From the IMG/VR virus record IMGVR_UViG_3300032007_000015: DNA of 64,000 nt, one strand, 5' to 3'. Made by a program: the position numbers and the translations under genes. The DNA comes from a virus. Taxonomy: Duplodnaviria; Caudoviricetes. Below are positions 1-27,217 of this stretch, one piece after another. Every line of letters starts with the position of its first letter. Position 1 is the first letter of the stretch. Under the pieces are notes generated by a model. That model worked only from the letters and a program-made list of their open reading frames with translations. It was not told the origin of the DNA and ran no database searches.

Positions 1-123
1 CTTTCCCAGTTAGACACATGAATTCTAACTGACGTGGTTTTATTTAGGATTACCACGGAACCTATTTATTATTTTATTCACAAAAATATTATATCAATAT
101 ACACATAGAGTTTACGGATTTTA
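1..123 (-). repeat. Cassette head repeat, copy A1: promoter, pseudoknot leader, hairpin and SD; its gene lies off the left edge
   Basis: Identical to 22706-22828; near-identical to 24983-25108; diverged copy at about 26990-27100. Confidence 0.95.
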
Positions 124-5865: not shown

Positions 5866-6616
5866 TTTCTGTTAAATTAACTTTATTATTTACTGAAGTA
5901 TATGAAATCTTATGTTTCAATGGTTCAGTCATTCCATTTGACCTGTCAATAATATTGATTTCAAAGTCAAATCCTAATAATTCAGCCCAAGTATTAAATG
6001 TACTCGTAGAAATTTTTGTTTTATTATTTAGGGCTGCTTTTAAGTTACTCATTTGGTATGCTTTATCAACAACATGTTTAATAGCATTAAGATTAGTTCC
6101 TTTATCAATTATGATATTTTTGATTAATAACTTTAAAAAGTCATCATTCTTTTCATCAATAACTGGTATATATTTTTCACCACCAGCATTCATATCATCA
6201 AGCATTTCTTTATTATATAAAGGAACATTTGGGTCTGTTATTTCAGCAATTGAACTTACATCCATTGATGATGTATTTTTTTCGTTGAATAGGGCTTTCG
6301 TTTTTGCATGACATCTTTTATTCCACGTAATAGTTGTTCTTATCTCATCACCTACGATTTCATCATACATATTAAACCAAGGTATTGGCATTGATGCAAT
6401 TCCTGACATACTTGGTAAATTTTTACGATATATCCAAATATCTCCATTCTCATCAATATAACCTTTGTTATCTTGAAATTCATCAGATAATCCATTTTTT
6501 GTTGTAATATCATGCTGAAATACACTTATACCAAAATCAGATAGTCTACCGACAACGCTATATGTTCTGCTTTGCCCAGATTTAAATTTGATATATAAAA
6601 GTTTCTGTTCAGACAT
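5843..6616 (-). CDS. Hypothetical protein with possible C-terminal HTH-like domain
   Basis: ORF with SD; C-terminal SNLKAAL...FNTWAELLG resembles an XRE-type HTH. Confidence 0.6.
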   Translation of the reverse strand: MSEQKLLYIKFKSGQSRTYSVVGRLSDFGISVFQHDITTKNGLSDEFQDNKGYIDENGDIWIYRKNLPSMSGIASMPIPWFNMYDEIVGDEIRTTITWNKRCHAKTKALFNEKNTSSMDVSSIAEITDPNVPLYNKEMLDDMNAGGEKYIPVIDEKNDDFLKLLIKNIIIDKGTNLNAIKHVVDKAYQMSNLKAALNNKTKISTSTFNTWAELLGFDFEINIIDRSNGMTEPLKHKISYTSVNNKVNLTEIDEKKEK

Positions 6617-19218: not shown

Positions 19219-19322
19219 AATTTTACCTTTCTTATACAATATGATTTTTAGGTAATTTAAACTTTAATGAAATGTATCAAATACTATAAAAAATAAAAAA
19301 ATAAATTTCAGGGATAACCCTA

Positions 19323-19849: not shown

Positions 19850-22411
19850 TTACTTTTTTACTTTTATCTTTTCATTATTAAATTTAAGATTATCAAAATC
19901 TATAACATCAACTGGATATTGAGAAAACATATCATTATGCGTTATAATAAACATTTGTTCTCCTTTTATTATATCTATAAAATGTTCAATAACATCAATA
20001 AATTTCATTCGTTTTCCTAAATCCAAATTTGAGTCTGCTTCATCTAATAATGCTATATTATAATCTGTTAAGTTTTGGTATGATAATGCAAAACTTATTG
20101 CAATTGATAAGAAACTTGATTCTCCCTGTGATGCATATCTTATATCTGAAATCTCTATTCCTTTATTATAAAAAGGAATATTAAATTCACTTTCAGATAA
20201 TTCGAAATCTTTTATTTCTATATCACCACCATAAACAATATCTAACATTTCATTTGCTAATTCTTTAGTATCTGATAAATACATCTCAATATAATTAAGT
20301 GGTATACCACTTTTAGTCGAGTATGCATTTTTTAGCATTATTAAATCTTGATATATTGATTTTAACTTATTCAATTCTTTTATCATATTATTATACTGAA
20401 TTAAATTATAATTCATTTCATTGTATATTGATGTAAGTTTTTCTATATCTTTACTACATTCAGATGATAAATCATTATATTTTTTATACATAATTTTATT
20501 TTCAGATAATGATGATAAAATACTATCTATTTCGTCAATTCGCTTATCTATTTCTTCATGTTTTTCTGTTACTAATAAAATATCATTATAATAATCTAAT
20601 TTAGTATTTAAATCAGACATATCATATGTTAAAGAAGAAATTTCACTATTCATTTGATTTGATTTTTCTGTTAATTCAGAAACTTTATTTTTTTTATCAG
20701 ATATTTCTTCTTTTAAACTTACTGCTTTAGAAATAGCTTTATTTAACTTAAGTTTTTCTTCTAATTCATTTATAGACATTTGTAGTTTAATTTTATTATC
20801 ATATTCTGTCATATATGACATATATTCATTTATAATCTTATCATCATAAATAAATTCACATTCAGAAATTTTATTATATATAGAAGAAACTGTAAACATA
20901 TCACGAAGTTTATTTGGTAACTTATCTATTAACTCAGAATAATCTGAAAATGGTTTAATTATATTAATTATATTATTATAACATATTTCCACATAATTAT
21001 AAAATTCTTGGTCCTTCTTAACTTCATTCATTCCACGTTTAATTTCAAGTGGTAATAATAAATCAGTTAATACTTGTTTTAATACACAATTTTCGTCACA
21101 ATTGATTTTAACATTCTTATATTTATCTATTAATTTATCTAAATATGTTTTTTCATTATTAGGTTCATTTAATAAATAAGCTTTAACCATATACTTTTCA
21201 ATTGAACGTTTTGATTTGATTAATTCTATTGCTTCTTTAATTGGTTCCTTTCCAAATTCATAAGTTAATAATAACATCTTTTGTGAATTTTTAAGAAAAA
21301 CAACAAAACTATCAAATTCATCTTTACTTATTTCAGATGTAAAATTACCTAAATTATCTGTGATATTATTAACTCGTATTTTCATTTGTGAAATCTGTTT
21401 TTCTAAATCTTCTATAATGGATAAAGATGTATCTTTTTCTAATTCATTTTTTAATATAGATATATCTATATTTAATTTATCAATTTCATCCATATTATTA
21501 GTATACTTATCTTTAAGTATTTCAATCGATATTGTCATTTTTTGTAATTTATTAGTTATATCATTTATTATATTAATTAATTCATCTTTAGTTTTTAAAT
21601 CAGTTTTATTTTTATATTTCTCTGATTTATTAACCAAATTCCTATGTTCCTTGACAATTTCACTGGTGTCACCTATATTATTTATATTTTCACGCAAAAC
21701 TGCTAATTTGTCATTATATGAAGATAATTCAGTATTAAGATTAGAAATCTTATTTTTAATACTATTAATTTCATCTTCATATTTAGATGAATCTTCTATA
21801 TTTAATTTATTAAGTTTATCAGTTATATGACCAATTATATTTTTTAAATCACGTACATCATTATTTATCTTTGTATAACACTTTAAATATATATCAGTTT
21901 CATCTAATATTTTAGACATAAAATTTTTTCTCTCAGTTGATAGTTGTTTAATTAAGTTATTGACATTATCACCAAGTCTTAATAACTTTAGATAATCAAT
22001 ATCTAATCCTAAAAATTGTTTTACTAACTCTTTAAATGACGTAGTATTTCCATTTTCATTTAATTCTTTTCCATTTACCATAAAAAAAGATTTTACTGAA
22101 TGATTTTTATCTTTAACGGGAGTATATATATGATGAATGATAATCTCATTATCTGAATTATCTATTATTATAATTTTTTTATCTCCTATTTTATTCTCTA
22201 AAATTAAATTATGTCTATCTCTAACATCCAAACTTCCCAGAGTTGCAAATGGAGTTAGATAACTAAGAAGGCTGGTTTTTCCTTTTCCATTGTCTCCTTT
22301 TAATACACAAATTTTATGTTGTCTATTTGAAAAATCTATACAAATATAATTTGTATTTAATCCTGTTTTTATATTACTAAAATTTTCAAGTTCTATTTGT
22401 TTTATATACAT
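19850..22411 (-). CDS. sbcC: SbcC/Rad50-like SMC ATPase
   Basis: Walker A GDNGKGKT, long coiled coil with CxxxC, SQGE signature, LLDE, ITH. Confidence 0.9.
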   Translation of the reverse strand: MYIKQIELENFSNIKTGLNTNYICIDFSNRQHKICVLKGDNGKGKTSLLSYLTPFATLGSLDVRDRHNLILENKIGDKKIIIIDNSDNEIIIHHIYTPVKDKNHSVKSFFMVNGKELNENGNTTSFKELVKQFLGLDIDYLKLLRLGDNVNNLIKQLSTERKNFMSKILDETDIYLKCYTKINNDVRDLKNIIGHITDKLNKLNIEDSSKYEDEINSIKNKISNLNTELSSYNDKLAVLRENINNIGDTSEIVKEHRNLVNKSEKYKNKTDLKTKDELINIINDITNKLQKMTISIEILKDKYTNNMDEIDKLNIDISILKNELEKDTSLSIIEDLEKQISQMKIRVNNITDNLGNFTSEISKDEFDSFVVFLKNSQKMLLLTYEFGKEPIKEAIELIKSKRSIEKYMVKAYLLNEPNNEKTYLDKLIDKYKNVKINCDENCVLKQVLTDLLLPLEIKRGMNEVKKDQEFYNYVEICYNNIINIIKPFSDYSELIDKLPNKLRDMFTVSSIYNKISECEFIYDDKIINEYMSYMTEYDNKIKLQMSINELEEKLKLNKAISKAVSLKEEISDKKNKVSELTEKSNQMNSEISSLTYDMSDLNTKLDYYNDILLVTEKHEEIDKRIDEIDSILSSLSENKIMYKKYNDLSSECSKDIEKLTSIYNEMNYNLIQYNNMIKELNKLKSIYQDLIMLKNAYSTKSGIPLNYIEMYLSDTKELANEMLDIVYGGDIEIKDFELSESEFNIPFYNKGIEISDIRYASQGESSFLSIAISFALSYQNLTDYNIALLDEADSNLDLGKRMKFIDVIEHFIDIIKGEQMFIITHNDMFSQYPVDVIDFDNLKFNNEKIKVKK

Positions 22412-22501
22412 AAGAATATTTTTCCTTTCATATGTAGTTTTAAAAAAATGTGAAAATGAATATAAAAAAAGAAAAAAAATATTTTTAGGGGTTTACCCTG
22501 C

Positions 22502-22529
22502 GAGCAGTTTATAGACGTTGCTCAGGTCT
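22502..22529 (-). promoter_or_regulatory. Pseudoknot trailer type C, copy C2
   Basis: AGAC-CT-GAGCA-AC-GTCT-ATAAAC-TGCTC followed by a small AGGG..CCCT hairpin. Confidence 0.8.
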
Positions 22530-22552
22530 GCAATTTTTTAAGTAGCTGTCGA

Positions 22553-22696
22553 CTACTTTTTGATTGCCTTTGAGATGGTCAGCAAGGCACTGCCCACTGA
22601 CCATGCCACAAAGGCATCTTTTGCTTCGTCTTTTATAATGGCTTTGAAACCTGAGACGAAATTGCCAACGAGTTCTTTGTTTAATTTATTTTTCAT
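22553..22696 (-). CDS. 47-aa peptide with hydrophobic C-terminal half (not in the ORF track), bracketed by A2 and C2
   Basis: MKNKLNKELVGNFVSGFKAIIKDEAKDAFVAWSVGSALLTISKAIKK; AAAGGAAG SD. Confidence 0.75.
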   Translation of the reverse strand: MKNKLNKELVGNFVSGFKAIIKDEAKDAFVAWSVGSALLTISKAIKK

Positions 22697-22705
22697 GTTA
22701 ACTTC

Positions 22706-22828
22706 CTTTCCCAGTTAGACACATGAATTCTAACTGACGTGGTTTTATTTAGGATTACCACGGAACCTATTTATTATTTTATTCACAAAAATATTATATC
22801 AATATACACATAGAGTTTACGGATTTTA
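22706..22828 (-). repeat. Cassette head repeat, copy A2 (pseudoknot at 22738-22769)
   Basis: 123-nt exact match to 1-123. Confidence 0.95.
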
Positions 22829-22851
22829 CAAAAAAATTAGGGATAACCCTA

Positions 22852-22878
22852 GAGCAGTTTATAGTCTTGCTCAGGACC
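22852..22878 (-). promoter_or_regulatory. Pseudoknot trailer type C, copy C3
   Basis: GGTC-CT-GAGCA-A-GACT-ATAAAC-TGCTC followed by AGGGTTATCCCT. Confidence 0.8.
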
Positions 22879-22891
22879 TAGAATATCAGCA

Positions 22892-23140
22892 CTATCTAGA
22901 TTTTTTTAAAACCTTTTTTAATATTGATATAAATGTAAGTATTAGTGATACCATGAATATAATATCACATTCAACTCTTATATCGTGAAGAAACTTAATT
23001 CTCCACAATCCCTTATCATTATCATTTTTGCACATGTATTTCCATGTGTAAATTTTTTCTTTAATAGTAAGATGTTTACTATTAATGATTTTTTCTTTGA
23101 TACCTTCCATAATGATTTTTTCTTTACTATTCTTCATCAT
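22892..23140 (-). CDS. Small membrane protein, bracketed by B3 and C3
   Basis: C-terminal hydrophobic segment followed by a basic tail; SD. Confidence 0.7.
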   Translation of the reverse strand: MMKNSKEKIIMEGIKEKIINSKHLTIKEKIYTWKYMCKNDNDKGLWRIKFLHDIRVECDIIFMVSLILTFISILKKVLKKSR

Positions 23141-23157
23141 AATATTTTCCTTTCTAA

Positions 23158-23185
23158 TGCTCGGTTTTAAGTCATGAGCTGGACA
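23158..23185 (-). promoter_or_regulatory. Pseudoknot leader type B, copy B3
   Basis: GTC-CA-GCTCA-T-GAC-TTAAAACC-GAGC before the SD. Confidence 0.8.
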
Positions 23186-23259
23186 TTATTTATTTATTCA
23201 ATAGAATATTATATCAATATTTTTATATTTTATTTTTAATTTTATACTAACATATTATT

Positions 23260-23600
23260 AATCTGCGTTGGCTTTATGCTGATTAACTAAATGTACTCAT
23301 ACTTTACCTGTTTGACAAATTGACATAAACAGTAAAAAATTGCTATTTTTTAATGAAACTCCGTATAAAAAGTAATAACCCGTCCTAAAATAAAAATCAT
23401 ATATATATATATGATTTTTTGATATTATAATGAATGATATTGTCGTTCATTGCCAATGCAGATAATTAATGTTCATAGATAATTGACAGAGTGAAACAAA
23501 TATAAATAAGTTTTGTATGTATTGGTGAATATTATATTTGTTCTGTTCTAGTCTATGTTTAAATAAAGTGAGCTTAGTGATTTTTGTCACTAAGCTCACA
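23260..23600 (+). ncRNA. Candidate structured ncRNA (about 340 nt)
   Basis: AACA-N6-TA promoter at 23249-23260, 11-bp long-range stem, several hairpins, terminator at 23568-23599, no substantial ORF. Confidence 0.5.
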
Positions 23601-23604
23601 TTTT

Positions 23605-24663
23605 TTAACCTTTATCATATTCATTAATTTTATTTTCTATTAAATCTAGAAAATCAGAAAATGACATACTTATTTCGAAGTATCCGCAACTTTCTAAACT
23701 ATCTTTACGCATATTTTCAAACCCTTCTATATCATATTTTTCAAATACTAATAATATATTTTCTTTTTCTTTTTTAAATTCGTTTTTTATTAATCTATAT
23801 AATGAACCAGCATAAACTAAGTTTTTTTGTAAATATGAATCTGGATATAAATACATAAAACTTTGTATATAGAAATAACAATGAGCGAGACATCCAAGTA
23901 GTACTCTATAACAATATGTAGCATCTATTCTGTGTAATTTATATTCTCTAATATGTGGAAATGCAACAGAAACTATATAATCGTTTAAATTCTCTTCAAT
24001 AAAATTTCTTTGTTTATCTCTCTTCATAGTTGTTGAATCTGAGTGTTTATACCATCTATAAGTAAATATGTGAAGTCCTAAACAATTAAAATGTTTTAAT
24101 TCATATAATATACAGTCTGTAAGACAACTAAAATATATGTCTTCGTGAGATGGTAAATCTTTCATATATCTTATATTATATTTCTTTATAAAATTATCTA
24201 AATTATAAAAATTTCCATGTGTCCAACTTCTATTATAAATATGCTCTCTAATTAATGAATTATCACTAGGATTCAACTCTCTAAAATCAGTTACACATTC
24301 ATATTTTTCTCCTGAAGAAATTATAGCATTTTTAATTTTAATAAATACATCAGGTTCAAACATATCATCATGATCAACAAATGTAATCCAATAACCAGTA
24401 GCATTTTCAAGTCCACGTTGTCTTGTATTATTAGTTGAAAAATTATAATCTGTTTTTACTCTCTTTATAAATAATTTATTTTCAAATGGTTTAATTATAT
24501 TATCATATGATTTTGTTGAACAGTCATCAGAAATGACAACTTCAATATCATCAGAACAATTCTGATCAACTATTGATTGTAATAAGATACCTAAACGGTA
24601 ATCACTATTATAACAAGGAATTATAACTGTAAAAAAAGGTCGCTTATGTAATTTAAAACTCAT
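23605..24663 (-). CDS. Glycosyltransferase family 2
   Basis: VIIPCYN, DDCST, TFVDHDD, HED motifs. Confidence 0.9.
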   Translation of the reverse strand: MSFKLHKRPFFTVIIPCYNSDYRLGILLQSIVDQNCSDDIEVVISDDCSTKSYDNIIKPFENKLFIKRVKTDYNFSTNNTRQRGLENATGYWITFVDHDDMFEPDVFIKIKNAIISSGEKYECVTDFRELNPSDNSLIREHIYNRSWTHGNFYNLDNFIKKYNIRYMKDLPSHEDIYFSCLTDCILYELKHFNCLGLHIFTYRWYKHSDSTTMKRDKQRNFIEENLNDYIVSVAFPHIREYKLHRIDATYCYRVLLGCLAHCYFYIQSFMYLYPDSYLQKNLVYAGSLYRLIKNEFKKEKENILLVFEKYDIEGFENMRKDSLESCGYFEISMSFSDFLDLIENKINEYDKG

Positions 24664-24749
24664 AATATTTAATCCTCACTTTTTATATTTATTAAAAAAA
24701 TGTGAAAGGAATATAAAAAAAGAAAAAATAAATTTTAGGGATAACCCTA

Positions 24750-24776
24750 GAGCAGTTTATAGTCTTGCTCAGGACT
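24750..24776 (-). promoter_or_regulatory. Pseudoknot trailer type C, copy C4
   Basis: AGTC-CT-GAGCA-A-GACT-ATAAAC-TGCTC followed by AGGGTTATCCCT. Confidence 0.8.
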
Positions 24777-24793
24777 TGATATACTAAGCCTAT

Positions 24794-24973
24794 CTATTCT
24801 TCGGTTTCTTCATTTTCCTCCTCCTTTCTGCATTTTTTAGCAACAACTGCAATTGGTACAGCCATTGCAGTTGTTGCTAAAATGGAGAACCCGAAGAACT
24901 CTCCATCTAAATATGCTTTTTGTTTTCTCAGCTCAGCAATCTGAGCCAACTCGTTCATCATTTTTTTCTTCAT
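24794..24973 (-). CDS. 59-aa single-pass membrane peptide (not in the ORF track), bracketed by A3 and C4
   Basis: MKKKMMNELAQIAELRKQKAYLDGEFFGFSILATTAMAVPIAVVAKKCRKEEENEETEE; SD. Confidence 0.8.
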   Translation of the reverse strand: MKKKMMNELAQIAELRKQKAYLDGEFFGFSILATTAMAVPIAVVAKKCRKEEENEETEE

Positions 24974-24982
24974 GTTAACTTC

Positions 24983-25108
24983 CTTTCCCAGTTAGACACA
25001 TGAATTCTAACTGACGTGGTTTTATTTAGGATTACCACGGAACCTATTTAATTTTTTATTTTATTCACAAAAATATTATATCAATATATATATAGAGTTT
25101 ACGGATTT
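24983..25108 (-). repeat. Cassette head repeat, copy A3 (pseudoknot at 25015-25046)
   Basis: Near-identical to 1-123. Confidence 0.93.
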
Positions 25109-25156
25109 GTGACAACAAAAAAAGATTGGATAGATTAATCTATCCAATCTTTTATA

Positions 25157-26989
25157 TTATTTTACATCACCAACTTCCATCTCATCTAACATATTTTGCA
25201 CATCAGACTTTCTTTCAGGCCATTTAACGAATCTGAAAGCATATCTATTTTGTCTTACAGCTGCAAGGCAAAGCTCATCCGTAATATTGTCCTCATTTAC
25301 AAACTGAAGAGCTAATCCATCCTGTTTAACTGCAGCCATGCAGATATCATAAGATGGATTGCTAATATATTCAAGAACTCGCCCAACTCGACTTACAGCT
25401 TCTAAAAGTAATTCTTTTGTCCACTGTTTACAATCGAGGATTGCATATGGATCTATCTCAACCGCAGCAAGGCAAACATTTCTTGTTTGCTTTTCACTTG
25501 GAATCACTGTTAATACCTTAGGATTCCTTCTTACTGCTTCGATATAAATCTCTTCGCTTGGATCTGCCATATATTGAACAGAAAATGGATCCTGCTTAAC
25601 AGCAGTCATATACATCCAATATGTTGGATGTTTAATCTCTCCTATCATATAAGGAGAGCATTCCAACATTTCGATGTACATCTCTTCAGTCCTATATATT
25701 TCATCAACATATTGTAATGCTAATGGATCTGACTTAAATGCTTCCATCTGCATTTCATATGTTGGATGTTCAATATACTGAATAGCCATACCACTCTGTC
25801 TTATAGCTTCCATGCAGATTTCATCGGTTAGGTTTTTCACGTACTGTATATTAACCCCACGATGTCTTACTGCTGCAAGACAAATTTCCTCTGTCTGATA
25901 CTCTGCATCAATAAATTCTAATGCTGAAAAATCCTTAGGTCTTAATGCAGCTAAACAGATTTCCTTTGTCTTATTCTTAACAAACTGAAGCGCTAATCCT
26001 TGTTTCTTTACGGCATTCATGCACATTTTTTCTGTTTGGTATTCTGCTTCAACATATCGAAGTATAAATGGATTTTCTTCAACTGCTTCTTCATATAAAT
26101 CCTTATATACTTCATCAATGTTTTTTCGTCTTGACCATGTTGTAATATCTCCTTCCTTTATATGCTTTGGTATCACAACGTTTTTGATATACTCCATAGC
26201 ATATCCATCGCCACGTTCAACAGCATATAAACAAACAACAAAAGAAGGATCAATGATATAATTAATTGAGTATCCATTTTGTTTTACAGCTATTTCGCAT
26301 AGCTCTTCTGTTGGATTCTCAATATATTGTATTAATGTCCCACTTTTTGCGAGAATTTTCTTACATAATTCATACGAAGGATTTTTAATATACATAAAAA
26401 GATCATGATTTGGATAAGATAACACCGACATTATTTCATTTGGAAATTTCTCGTAAATATAATTTACAATGCTTGGATCTTTACGACATGCAAGATCCAT
26501 GAAATTTATATTCGGGTTATCTATTAATTTGATATTTTCAGGTTTCGATTCAATTGCAAGACGACATAAATATTCTGTCTTATTTTTAACGTACTTAAAA
26601 GCATCTGGATTCTGCTTTATTGCAAACATGCAGATTTTTTCAGTCTGTTCATCAATAAGACGAAGTACTGTTCCGTCCTGACGAACAGCTGTTAAATAAA
26701 TTTTACTACTTGGATTTTCAACATACTCTAATGCATATGCATTCTGTCTTACAGCTGCCGTACACATTCTAATGTTTTTGAATGACTTATCTACAAACTG
26801 AAGAGCCATTCCATTCTGTCTTATAGCTTCCATACAGATTTTCCTGTATTGCTCTTTTATATATTGCAAGGCTAAGCCATTCTGTCTTACAGCCGCAAGA
26901 CAAATTTCATAATCTGGATTTTCAATACTTGCTATTGCTAATCCATCTCTTGTTACTTTTTCATAATTATTCATAAATAAATTTTCCAT
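25157..26989 (-). CDS. DUF4116-like repeat protein (start MENLF)
   Basis: Many EICLAAVRQNGLALQYI-type repeats; SD after leader A4. Confidence 0.85.
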   Translation of the reverse strand: MENLFMNNYEKVTRDGLAIASIENPDYEICLAAVRQNGLALQYIKEQYRKICMEAIRQNGMALQFVDKSFKNIRMCTAAVRQNAYALEYVENPSSKIYLTAVRQDGTVLRLIDEQTEKICMFAIKQNPDAFKYVKNKTEYLCRLAIESKPENIKLIDNPNINFMDLACRKDPSIVNYIYEKFPNEIMSVLSYPNHDLFMYIKNPSYELCKKILAKSGTLIQYIENPTEELCEIAVKQNGYSINYIIDPSFVVCLYAVERGDGYAMEYIKNVVIPKHIKEGDITTWSRRKNIDEVYKDLYEEAVEENPFILRYVEAEYQTEKMCMNAVKKQGLALQFVKNKTKEICLAALRPKDFSALEFIDAEYQTEEICLAAVRHRGVNIQYVKNLTDEICMEAIRQSGMAIQYIEHPTYEMQMEAFKSDPLALQYVDEIYRTEEMYIEMLECSPYMIGEIKHPTYWMYMTAVKQDPFSVQYMADPSEEIYIEAVRRNPKVLTVIPSEKQTRNVCLAAVEIDPYAILDCKQWTKELLLEAVSRVGRVLEYISNPSYDICMAAVKQDGLALQFVNEDNITDELCLAAVRQNRYAFRFVKWPERKSDVQNMLDEMEVGDVK

Positions 26990-27058
26990 ATTAACTCCTT
27001 TCCCTGCTAGCATATGGAACTAACAGACATGGTTTTATTTAGGATTACCACGGAACCT
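26990..27058 (-). promoter_or_regulatory. Diverged type A leader, copy A4
   Basis: Same pseudoknot (27028-27058); second hairpin carries compensatory changes. Confidence 0.85.
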
Positions 27059-27217
27059 TTATAATTTTATTATTTTAAACAAAAAAATATTATATAACTA
27101 AATTAATATATTAAATATAAAAATATTAAAGTTTAAAATAAATTATATCATTTATTATAAGCTTATTCAGTATTCTATTCATAAAAAATATTTTTTGTAC
27201 TAGTGATTTCTTCTAAA

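Follow-up and report, generated by a model that had tools for sequence, protein, structure and literature searches.

The closest described system to the repeat treated here is the PeSL (promoter-early stem-loop) of T4-type phages, which combines a terminator with an early promoter (Arbiol et al., 2010, PMC2839356; Comeau et al., 2014, PMC4122927). Recombination at PeSLs inserts, deletes and replaces cargo among the non-essential ORFans of close relatives (PMC2839356, PMC4122927). The DNA analyzed here, in the following called the window, is a stretch of 64,000 nucleotides from a virus of the Caudoviricetes (IMG/VR record IMGVR_UViG_3300032007_000015). It contains short composite regulatory repeats which resemble PeSLs in several ways: a conserved promoter of the early type lies within the repeat, and the cargos are ORFans which show indels and replacements between relatives, being swapped in some of them and absent from others. 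A terminator-like trailer precedes two of the four copies, and not the other two. The PeSL, however, has a sigma70-like promoter and is without a folded translated leader, whereas the repeat in the window continues through a 72-nt folded 5' UTR, the SD, the AUG and the first codons. The T4-type genome with sigma70-like early promoters which belongs to the PeSL was not found in the window; this phage is a jumbo phage like AR9 and has RNA polymerases of its own.

Other known systems are similar to the leader part of the repeat. The operator of the E. coli rpsO gene (S15) is a pseudoknot acting by "entrapment", a case of single-gene autoregulation in which the operator is bound by the product of its own gene. 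The likeness to the proposed fold of the window leader is that of an H-type pseudoknot at the initiation region, with the start codon region in a helix and the SD in the connecting segment; in the window leader the start-codon helix is supported by covariation, at two both-sides changes. Unlike the rpsO operator the window leader serves many unrelated genes, and it has neither sequence similarity to that operator nor a match in Rfam. In phage T4 the RegA sites are unstructured and A/U-rich, lie over the start codons of early genes and are shared by many of these, and the pseudoknot in the gene 32 leader is located far upstream of the start and serves one gene only. With both T4 operators the window leader would share a phage-encoded point of post-transcriptional control at the 5' leader or the start codon, but it differs from the former by being folded and from the latter by serving several genes. 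No RNA-binding family and no RegA-like protein was found among the approximately 30 window proteins which were scanned; most of the genome lies beyond the window.

We consider it rather probable that the repeat is a portable module of promoter and leader, which damps the initiation of translation by a 7-8 bp helix between the start codon and the loop of the second hairpin (loop 2).

Copies of the repeat

The original prediction started from a 123-nt exact repeat with copies about 22.7 kb apart, and this repeat is real: positions 1-123 and 22706-22828 are 100% identical, with a spacing of 22,705 nt. A 30-nt core of the repeat (GGTTCC..GGTAATCCTAAATAAAACC..G) is found in four copies on the minus strand, compared to none expected from shuffled sequence. 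The copies are named by the position of their AGG on the minus strand, A1 (63), A2 (22768), A3 (25045) and A4 (27058), and the ATGs of the last three are at 22696, 24973 and 26989. Every copy is composed of a promoter box, an A/U linker and a leader, and the complete leaders are 69-72 nt long and end in a strong SD and the AUG (Table 1). The leader sequence which had been quoted earlier is right for A2 and A3. The leader of A1 is cut by the start of the window after GGGAAAG, with the end of the SD, the AUG and the cargo gene beyond the window; what is left matches the covariance model R1, which was built from A2 and A3, with 85 bits over model positions 1-63, the 3' end being cut.

Table 1. 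Positions of the cassette features in the window
Feature	Position	Strand	Remarks
30-nt core	33-62, 22738-22767, 25015-25044, 27028-27057	minus	pattern count
Promoter core, exact copies	79, 19800, 22784, 23199, 25066, 27080, 36165, 40998, 45301, 58357, 62474	minus	
TAGGGTTATCCCTA trailer hairpins	22838-22851, 24736-24749, 19309-19322	minus	
A1 promoter box and A/U linker	64-123	minus	core TATAATATT-N4-TG at 79-93; 100% identical to 22769-22828
A1 leader, incomplete	1-63	minus	5' pseudoknot region, hairpin 1, hairpin 2, beginning of SD
A2 promoter box and linker	22769-22828	minus	directly downstream of TAGGGTTATCCCTA and T-run trailer
A2 leader	22697-22768	minus	72 nt
A2 candidate 5' pseudoknot stem	22764-22768 with 22751-22756	minus	AGGUU with AAUCCU
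A2 hairpin 1	22738-22762	minus	
A2 hairpin 2	22712-22736	minus	
A2 loop-2 segment	22721-22727	minus	UUCAUGU, leader 42-48; complement of ACAUGAA
A2 SD	22702-22711	minus	GGAAAGGAAG
A2 start region	22692-22698	minus	ACAUGAA, leader 71-77; AUG 22694-22696
A2 cargo	22553-22696	minus	47-aa ORF; no Pfam family
A3 promoter box and linker	25046-25105	minus	linker 5 nt longer than that of A2
A3 leader	24974-25045	minus	72/72 nt identical to A2
A3 cargo	24794-24973	minus	59-aa ORF; one hydrophobic segment, acidic tail
22-codon GUG frames (A2, A3)	22693-22761, 24970-25038	minus	
A4 promoter box and linker	27059-27108	minus	box diverged, core TATAATATT-N4-TG kept
A4 leader	26990-27058	minus	69 nt, divergent copy
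A4 loop segment	27012-27019	minus	UUCCAUAU; complement of AUAUGGAA at 26984-26991; AUG 26987-26989
A4 cargo	25157-26989	minus	610-aa DUF4116 repeat protein; Pfam PF13475, E = 1.4e-66, nine repeat matches

Promoter and transcription start

The promoter core TATAATATT-N4-TG is present in 11 exact copies in the window, all of which lie on the minus strand ahead of genes of that strand, and the type A leader stands behind only four of these. When one mismatch is allowed the number is 25 compared to 18.9 expected, a total which is not above chance. The promoter box is also kept in L013, a relative whose prohead protease is 80% identical. The phage has genes for a split multisubunit RNA polymerase, with a beta-like subunit approximately 31% identical to that of the Bacillus phages AR9 and PBS1, the jumbo phages to which this gene is closest. 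The early promoter of AR9 is AAATATATATTAT-(6N)-G+1 (PMC5312081), and the promoter box in the window is of this AR9 early style, having a conserved G six bases past the AT-rich core. A consensus scanner also reports a sigma70-like TTGATA-18-AATAAT in the box; the promoter resembles the early motif of the AR9 virion RNA polymerase more than a spaced -35/-10 pair. The core looks like a general early promoter of an AR9-like phage.

Transcription would start either at the conserved G past the promoter core or at a position beside the AGG; with the former start 17-27 A/U-rich nt would be ahead of the pseudoknot. The length of the A/T linker varies, from 7 to 13 nt between TAAAAT and the AGG. The TAGGGTTATCCCTA mini-hairpin and its T-run, which come after a conserved GTCCTGAGCAAGACTATAAACTGCTC block, form a terminator-like trailer of the cassette. 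It is found directly upstream of the A2 and A3 promoters, and likewise in three related contigs (L019, L020 and L022), and is absent upstream of A1 and A4.

Structured 5' leaders are known to stabilize mRNA, the ompA leader and the ermC and SP82 5' stabilizers being examples. With these precedents, and with structures which begin 0-27 nt from either plausible start site, the leader could be seen as a 5' stabilizer and nothing else: the structures would block 5'-end-dependent decay (of the RNase J1 or the RNase Y/E type) and the match between loop 2 and the AUG would be non-regulatory. The varying linker, on the other hand, places the structure at no fixed distance from the 5' end, and the covariation of loop 2 with the start context (see below) would be left unexplained. 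We find it unlikely that stabilization is all that the leader does; such a role may coexist with a damped initiation rather than replace it.

Structure of the leader

With the leader numbered from the AGG of A2 (AGG = 1), hairpin 1 is formed by 7-12/26-31 (CGUGGU/ACCACG, -6.9 kcal/mol) and hairpin 2 by 33-40/50-57 (-8.5 kcal/mol), the SD GGAAAGGAAG covers 58-67 and the AUG 73-75. Pairing of the 5' AGGUU with the AAUCCU of loop 1 is possible and would give a compact pseudoknot of the H type, whose third loop has 7 nt and is A-rich. The pairs of this 5' pseudoknot stem (P1) do not vary in any copy and the stem alone is marginal (-0.5 to +1.1 kcal/mol). The MFE folds with the two hairpins have z-scores of about -1.5 to -3.3 compared to shuffled sequences.

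Six copies were aligned with the covariance model, the four of the window and those of L019 and L020. All 26 proposed pairs are 100% paired in these copies, compared to 28-44% in a control in which the 3' partners were slid by 1-3 columns. Both partners have changed in three pairs; one of these belongs to hairpin 2 (A-U to U-A), the other two to the helix between loop 2 and the AUG. It should be noted that this covariation amounts to one independent comparison, that with A4, because there are only two truly different leader variants in the data. The original prediction stated that A4 has changed its second hairpin to CUGUUAG/CUAGCAG with every pair retained, and this was borne out. A2 and A4 differ at a single place in their first 32 nt, where a G-C pair of hairpin 1 has become G-U, and at eight places in the 25 columns of hairpin 2; all eight changes fit both hairpin 2 and the helix between loop and start. 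The nearly invariant first half could reflect a function or a short gene-conversion tract. For hairpin 2 and the start-codon helix the sequence comparison gives real support, from the single independent variant A4. The earlier suggestion of a structured 5' leader with a potential for translational control is supported.

A more specific suggestion was that the UCCU of loop 1 and the 5' UUCC, which are complementary to the AGGA/GGAA of the SD, might form an alternative fold occluding the SD. The complementarities are there in all copies, 4 nt each, but the occluding fold is not supported as stated. In such a switch the opening of the 5' pseudoknot would let UCCU or UUCC block the SD, and a pseudoknot stabilized by a ligand or a protein would set it free. 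The nested MFE structure of A2 and A3 does close a three-way junction with UUCC:GGAA, and in the nested ensemble it costs 2.1 kcal/mol (A2) or 4.8 kcal/mol (A4) to keep the SD unpaired. The closure of the junction gains only 1.3 kcal/mol over the two hairpins, however, and the contacts of 4 bp give duplexes of only -2.1 to -2.7 kcal/mol. None of the pairs varies among the copies, hence there is no covariation, and the 5' UUCC of A4 finds its best nested partner in the start codon region instead of the SD. Furthermore, purine-rich SDs and short pyrimidine runs match very often by chance. A switch based on occlusion of the SD seems to us quite unlikely.

Two other candidates were tried and rejected. 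For an attenuator or terminator, hairpin 2 is followed by GGGAAAGG, which contains no U-run. For a leader peptide, A2 and A3 have a 22-codon frame starting with GUG, whose UGA overlaps the AUG of the cargo gene (AUGA), and the corresponding frame of A4 stops earlier, inside hairpin 2.

Proposed pairing of loop 2 with the start codon

The contact between loop 2 and the start codon, which was absent from the original prediction, is the best-supported one in the leader. Loop 2 and its own start can form seven contiguous Watson-Crick pairs in the A2/A3 type and eight in A4, and when loops and starts are swapped between the two types only 3 bp can be formed. The helix has changed on both sides at two places: position -1 went from C to U together with a G to A change in the loop, and position +4 from A to G together with U to C. 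A third substitution in the A4 loop gives the eighth pair. The duplex has a calculated energy of -5.8 kcal/mol in A2 and -7.2 kcal/mol in A4. The probability that a random 9-nt loop has at least seven pairs is ~0.0015-0.002, and that three random substitutions in the A2 loop give eight pairs with the A4 start is ~0.0008. Against a looser background, a complement of at least 7 nt anywhere in the region from -60 to -15 is found for 5 of 93 other candidate starts of the window. The helix of 7-8 bp is AU-rich and lies beside a very strong SD, and ribosomes may open it so easily that the braking is small. The palindromes CAUG and CAUAUG in loop 2 could also give loop-loop dimers.

It might be argued that the repeat acts at the DNA level only, for recombination and homogenization, and that gene conversion alone keeps the copies identical with the RNA folds being incidental. 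A1 and A2 are indeed exactly identical through both promoter and leader, the cargos and their N-termini are mosaic, and assemblies break at the repeat. A4, on the other hand, has diverged in the promoter and in the second half of the leader, yet it has kept all pairs of hairpin 2 and its loop has been matched anew to its own start. This pattern is a signature of selection on RNA pairing and not of conversion, and we hold a purely DNA-level repeat to be very unlikely.

Comparison with the preQ1-I riboswitch

The first half of the leader can be drawn as a small H-type pseudoknot with a short P1, like that of the preQ1-I riboswitch (PMC11625349). This agrees with a riboswitch-like reading, which had been part of the original prediction. 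The first 31-33 nt would be a variant aptamer of the preQ1-I type with U as the specificity base, which binds another purine-like ligand and transmits the signal to the mask over the start codon. As in preQ1-I there is a UU after the 5' strand of P1, an A-rich L3 (AAAUAAA) and a P2 made of the loop and the 3' tail (PMC11625349), and the first half of the leader is much more conserved than the second.

The types I-III of preQ1-I (class I) all use a cytosine as specificity base, immediately 5' of the 3' strand of P1 (PMC11625349), whereas all copies of the leader have a U in this place (AAU-CCU). In preQ1-I the C-to-U mutants have a 60-300-fold reduced response (PMC10622847). P2, which is the stem of hairpin 1, is 100% paired with one change between G-C and G-U; it has 6 bp and is G-C-rich, and as hairpin 1 alone has -6.9 kcal/mol it should form without ligand. 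There are 27 nt between the end of its 3' strand and the SD, which it does not overlap, unlike in preQ1-I. The cargos, two ORFs of 47 and 59 aa and a DUF4116 repeat protein, also differ from those of preQ1-I in that none is related to queuosine. A search of Rfam including RF00522, the preQ1-I family, gave no match at the gathering threshold and none at E<=10 on the 96- and 93-nt stretches, and on the 4.7-kb region there was no match to RF00522 at E<=10. A wider family was not seen in scans of IMG/VR, JGI metagenomes and GTDB, where all matches were chance or coding ones. The riboswitch-like reading has thus lost its ground, because there is no Rfam match at E<=10, the specificity base is U, and the cargos are unrelated to each other and without a metabolic link; a metabolite riboswitch is in our opinion highly improbable. 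The same low expectation applies to an extended form of it, in which the first half would be a natural specificity variant of preQ1-I that binds another purine-like compound, made or consumed in the course of jumbo-phage infection, and switches a whole regulon of ten or more accessory cassettes through the start-codon mask.

Distribution and exchange of the cassettes

The leader is carried by four short ENA contigs from related strains (L019-L022). In L021 and L022 it stands ahead of a homolog of the 47-aa gene with 66% identity in protein and 70% in DNA, and is itself identical in 72/72 nt. In L019 and L020 the leaders are 100% and 98.6% identical, and the DNA of the cargo is 76-79% identical. 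Among the related strains the leader is thus 98.6-100% identical compared to 70-79% for the coding sequence of the cargo.

The cargos have moved between the cassettes. A gene of the 59-aa type occupies in L019 and L020 the slot which the 47-aa gene has in the window (that of A2). The N-terminal head MKNKLNK belongs to the 47-aa gene in the window and to the 59-aa-type gene in L020, and the head MKKKM to the 59-aa gene in the window and to the 47-aa-type gene in L021 and L022. Because the first codons are mosaic in this way, the repeat must reach beyond the AUG to take in the first A-rich codons, and it serves as a point of crossover. The exact identity of A1 and A2 had been ascribed to copying or gene conversion, an idea that finds support both in the swapped heads and in the contrast in identity between leader and cargo. 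In L013 the genes for an SMC-like protein, a glycosyltransferase (GT2) and the prohead protease lie next to each other, and neither a leader nor any small gene separates them; the units A3/59-aa and A4/DUF4116 are therefore insertions in the window phage. Contigs of near-identical strains break off within the leader, which a repeat in the genome would lead one to expect, and the contigs matched by an exact look-up of the helicase stop short of A1.

Outside these strains the searches were negative. The covariance model found no copy in 12 related IMG/VR loci, nor in L013 and L016, nor in five whole records of related jumbo phages with 48-65% protease identity. A blastn search with positions 22400-25400 gave no match among the GenBank phages, and tight leader patterns, both exact and degenerate, gave none in IMG/VR, JGI metagenomes and GTDB genomes. 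A looser pattern gave two matches in IMG/VR, an AT-rich look-alike (L024) and a clear chance match (L023), and 31 in the JGI metagenomes, of which approximately 20 belong to a single protein-coding gene of marine origin and the others are due to chance. The leader seems from these searches to be confined to this phage lineage.

The look-alike in L024, a 22-kb contig, is one of the first half of the leader and is located at 6214-6239 on the minus strand (AGGTTC-N7-ATCCTAAATAAAA). Its arms are wholly different and all A-U, yet complementary over 7 bp. As a copy of the leader it was rejected: the region is very AT-rich, there is no SD or gene behind it, and it is indistinguishable from chance.

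A model for the cassette

In the model we propose, the 123-nt repeat is one copy of an expression cassette that is portable and belongs to a jumbo phage of the AR9/PBS1 type; we judge this model, taken as a whole, to be more probable than its alternatives together, with considerable room for doubt. The cassette would consist of a general promoter of the early type, a variable A/U linker and a structured 5' leader of 69-72 nt, and any accessory gene placed behind the leader would receive from it the SD, the AUG and in many cases its first 5-7 codons, which are A-rich. In the transcript hairpin 1, possibly closed by the 5' AGG(UU) into a compact H-type pseudoknot, would be followed by hairpin 2. 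The 9-nt loop of hairpin 2 would then pair with the start codon region 13 nt downstream of the stem, making a second pseudoknot which has the strong SD in its 13-nt connecting loop. Both pseudoknots are postulated to exist in vivo.

The probable effect would be a brake or insulator on the initiation of translation which is uniform and independent of the cargo, and the leader might also be a common handle for a trans-acting factor. Both the direction and the size of this effect are inferred. The conserved first half might additionally protect the 5' end or offer a binding site. At the DNA level, recombination or gene conversion would keep the near-identical copies uniform, and the same copies would double as crossover points for the insertion and exchange of cargo.

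Should the leader act in the proposed way, it would be a plug-and-play module of natural origin, giving newly acquired phage genes a defined level of translation independent of the cargo. The same module would be the recombination site by which the accessory genes are moved, so that the shuffling of accessory genes in giant phages would be tied to the control of translation, two subjects which are usually treated apart. The leader is an RNA motif missing from Rfam, and if the model is true it would also be a compact tandem-pseudoknot element for synthetic 5'-UTR insulation in hosts of low GC content.

Cargo genes

The cargos have no close relatives, or have relatives only within this phage lineage. 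The DUF4116 protein has no relative with more than 38% identity among 5.8 billion protein clusters, and for this reason its homologs gave no leader variants. The only close relative of the 47-aa cargo is the 66% identical one which has the same position, behind an identical leader, in L021 and L022. Exact protein look-ups of the 47-aa cargo and of a 157-aa neighbor gave no record. The 47-aa protein resembles a unit of which some proteins of 515-676 aa in a representative library contain 7-8 repeats, and it may represent a single such module standing on its own.

The homologs of the 59-aa cargo in L019 and L020 are 87% and 75% identical and have the same leader. Within the coding sequence for its hydrophobic segment this ORF contains a perfect 14-bp hairpin (approximately 24835-24875, minus strand), which is followed by AAAGGAGGAGG and an ATG. 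In Rfam the hairpin has a sub-threshold look-alike, SSRC34, with 33.6 bits compared to the 64 needed. The arms of the hairpin are kept in both L019 and L020.
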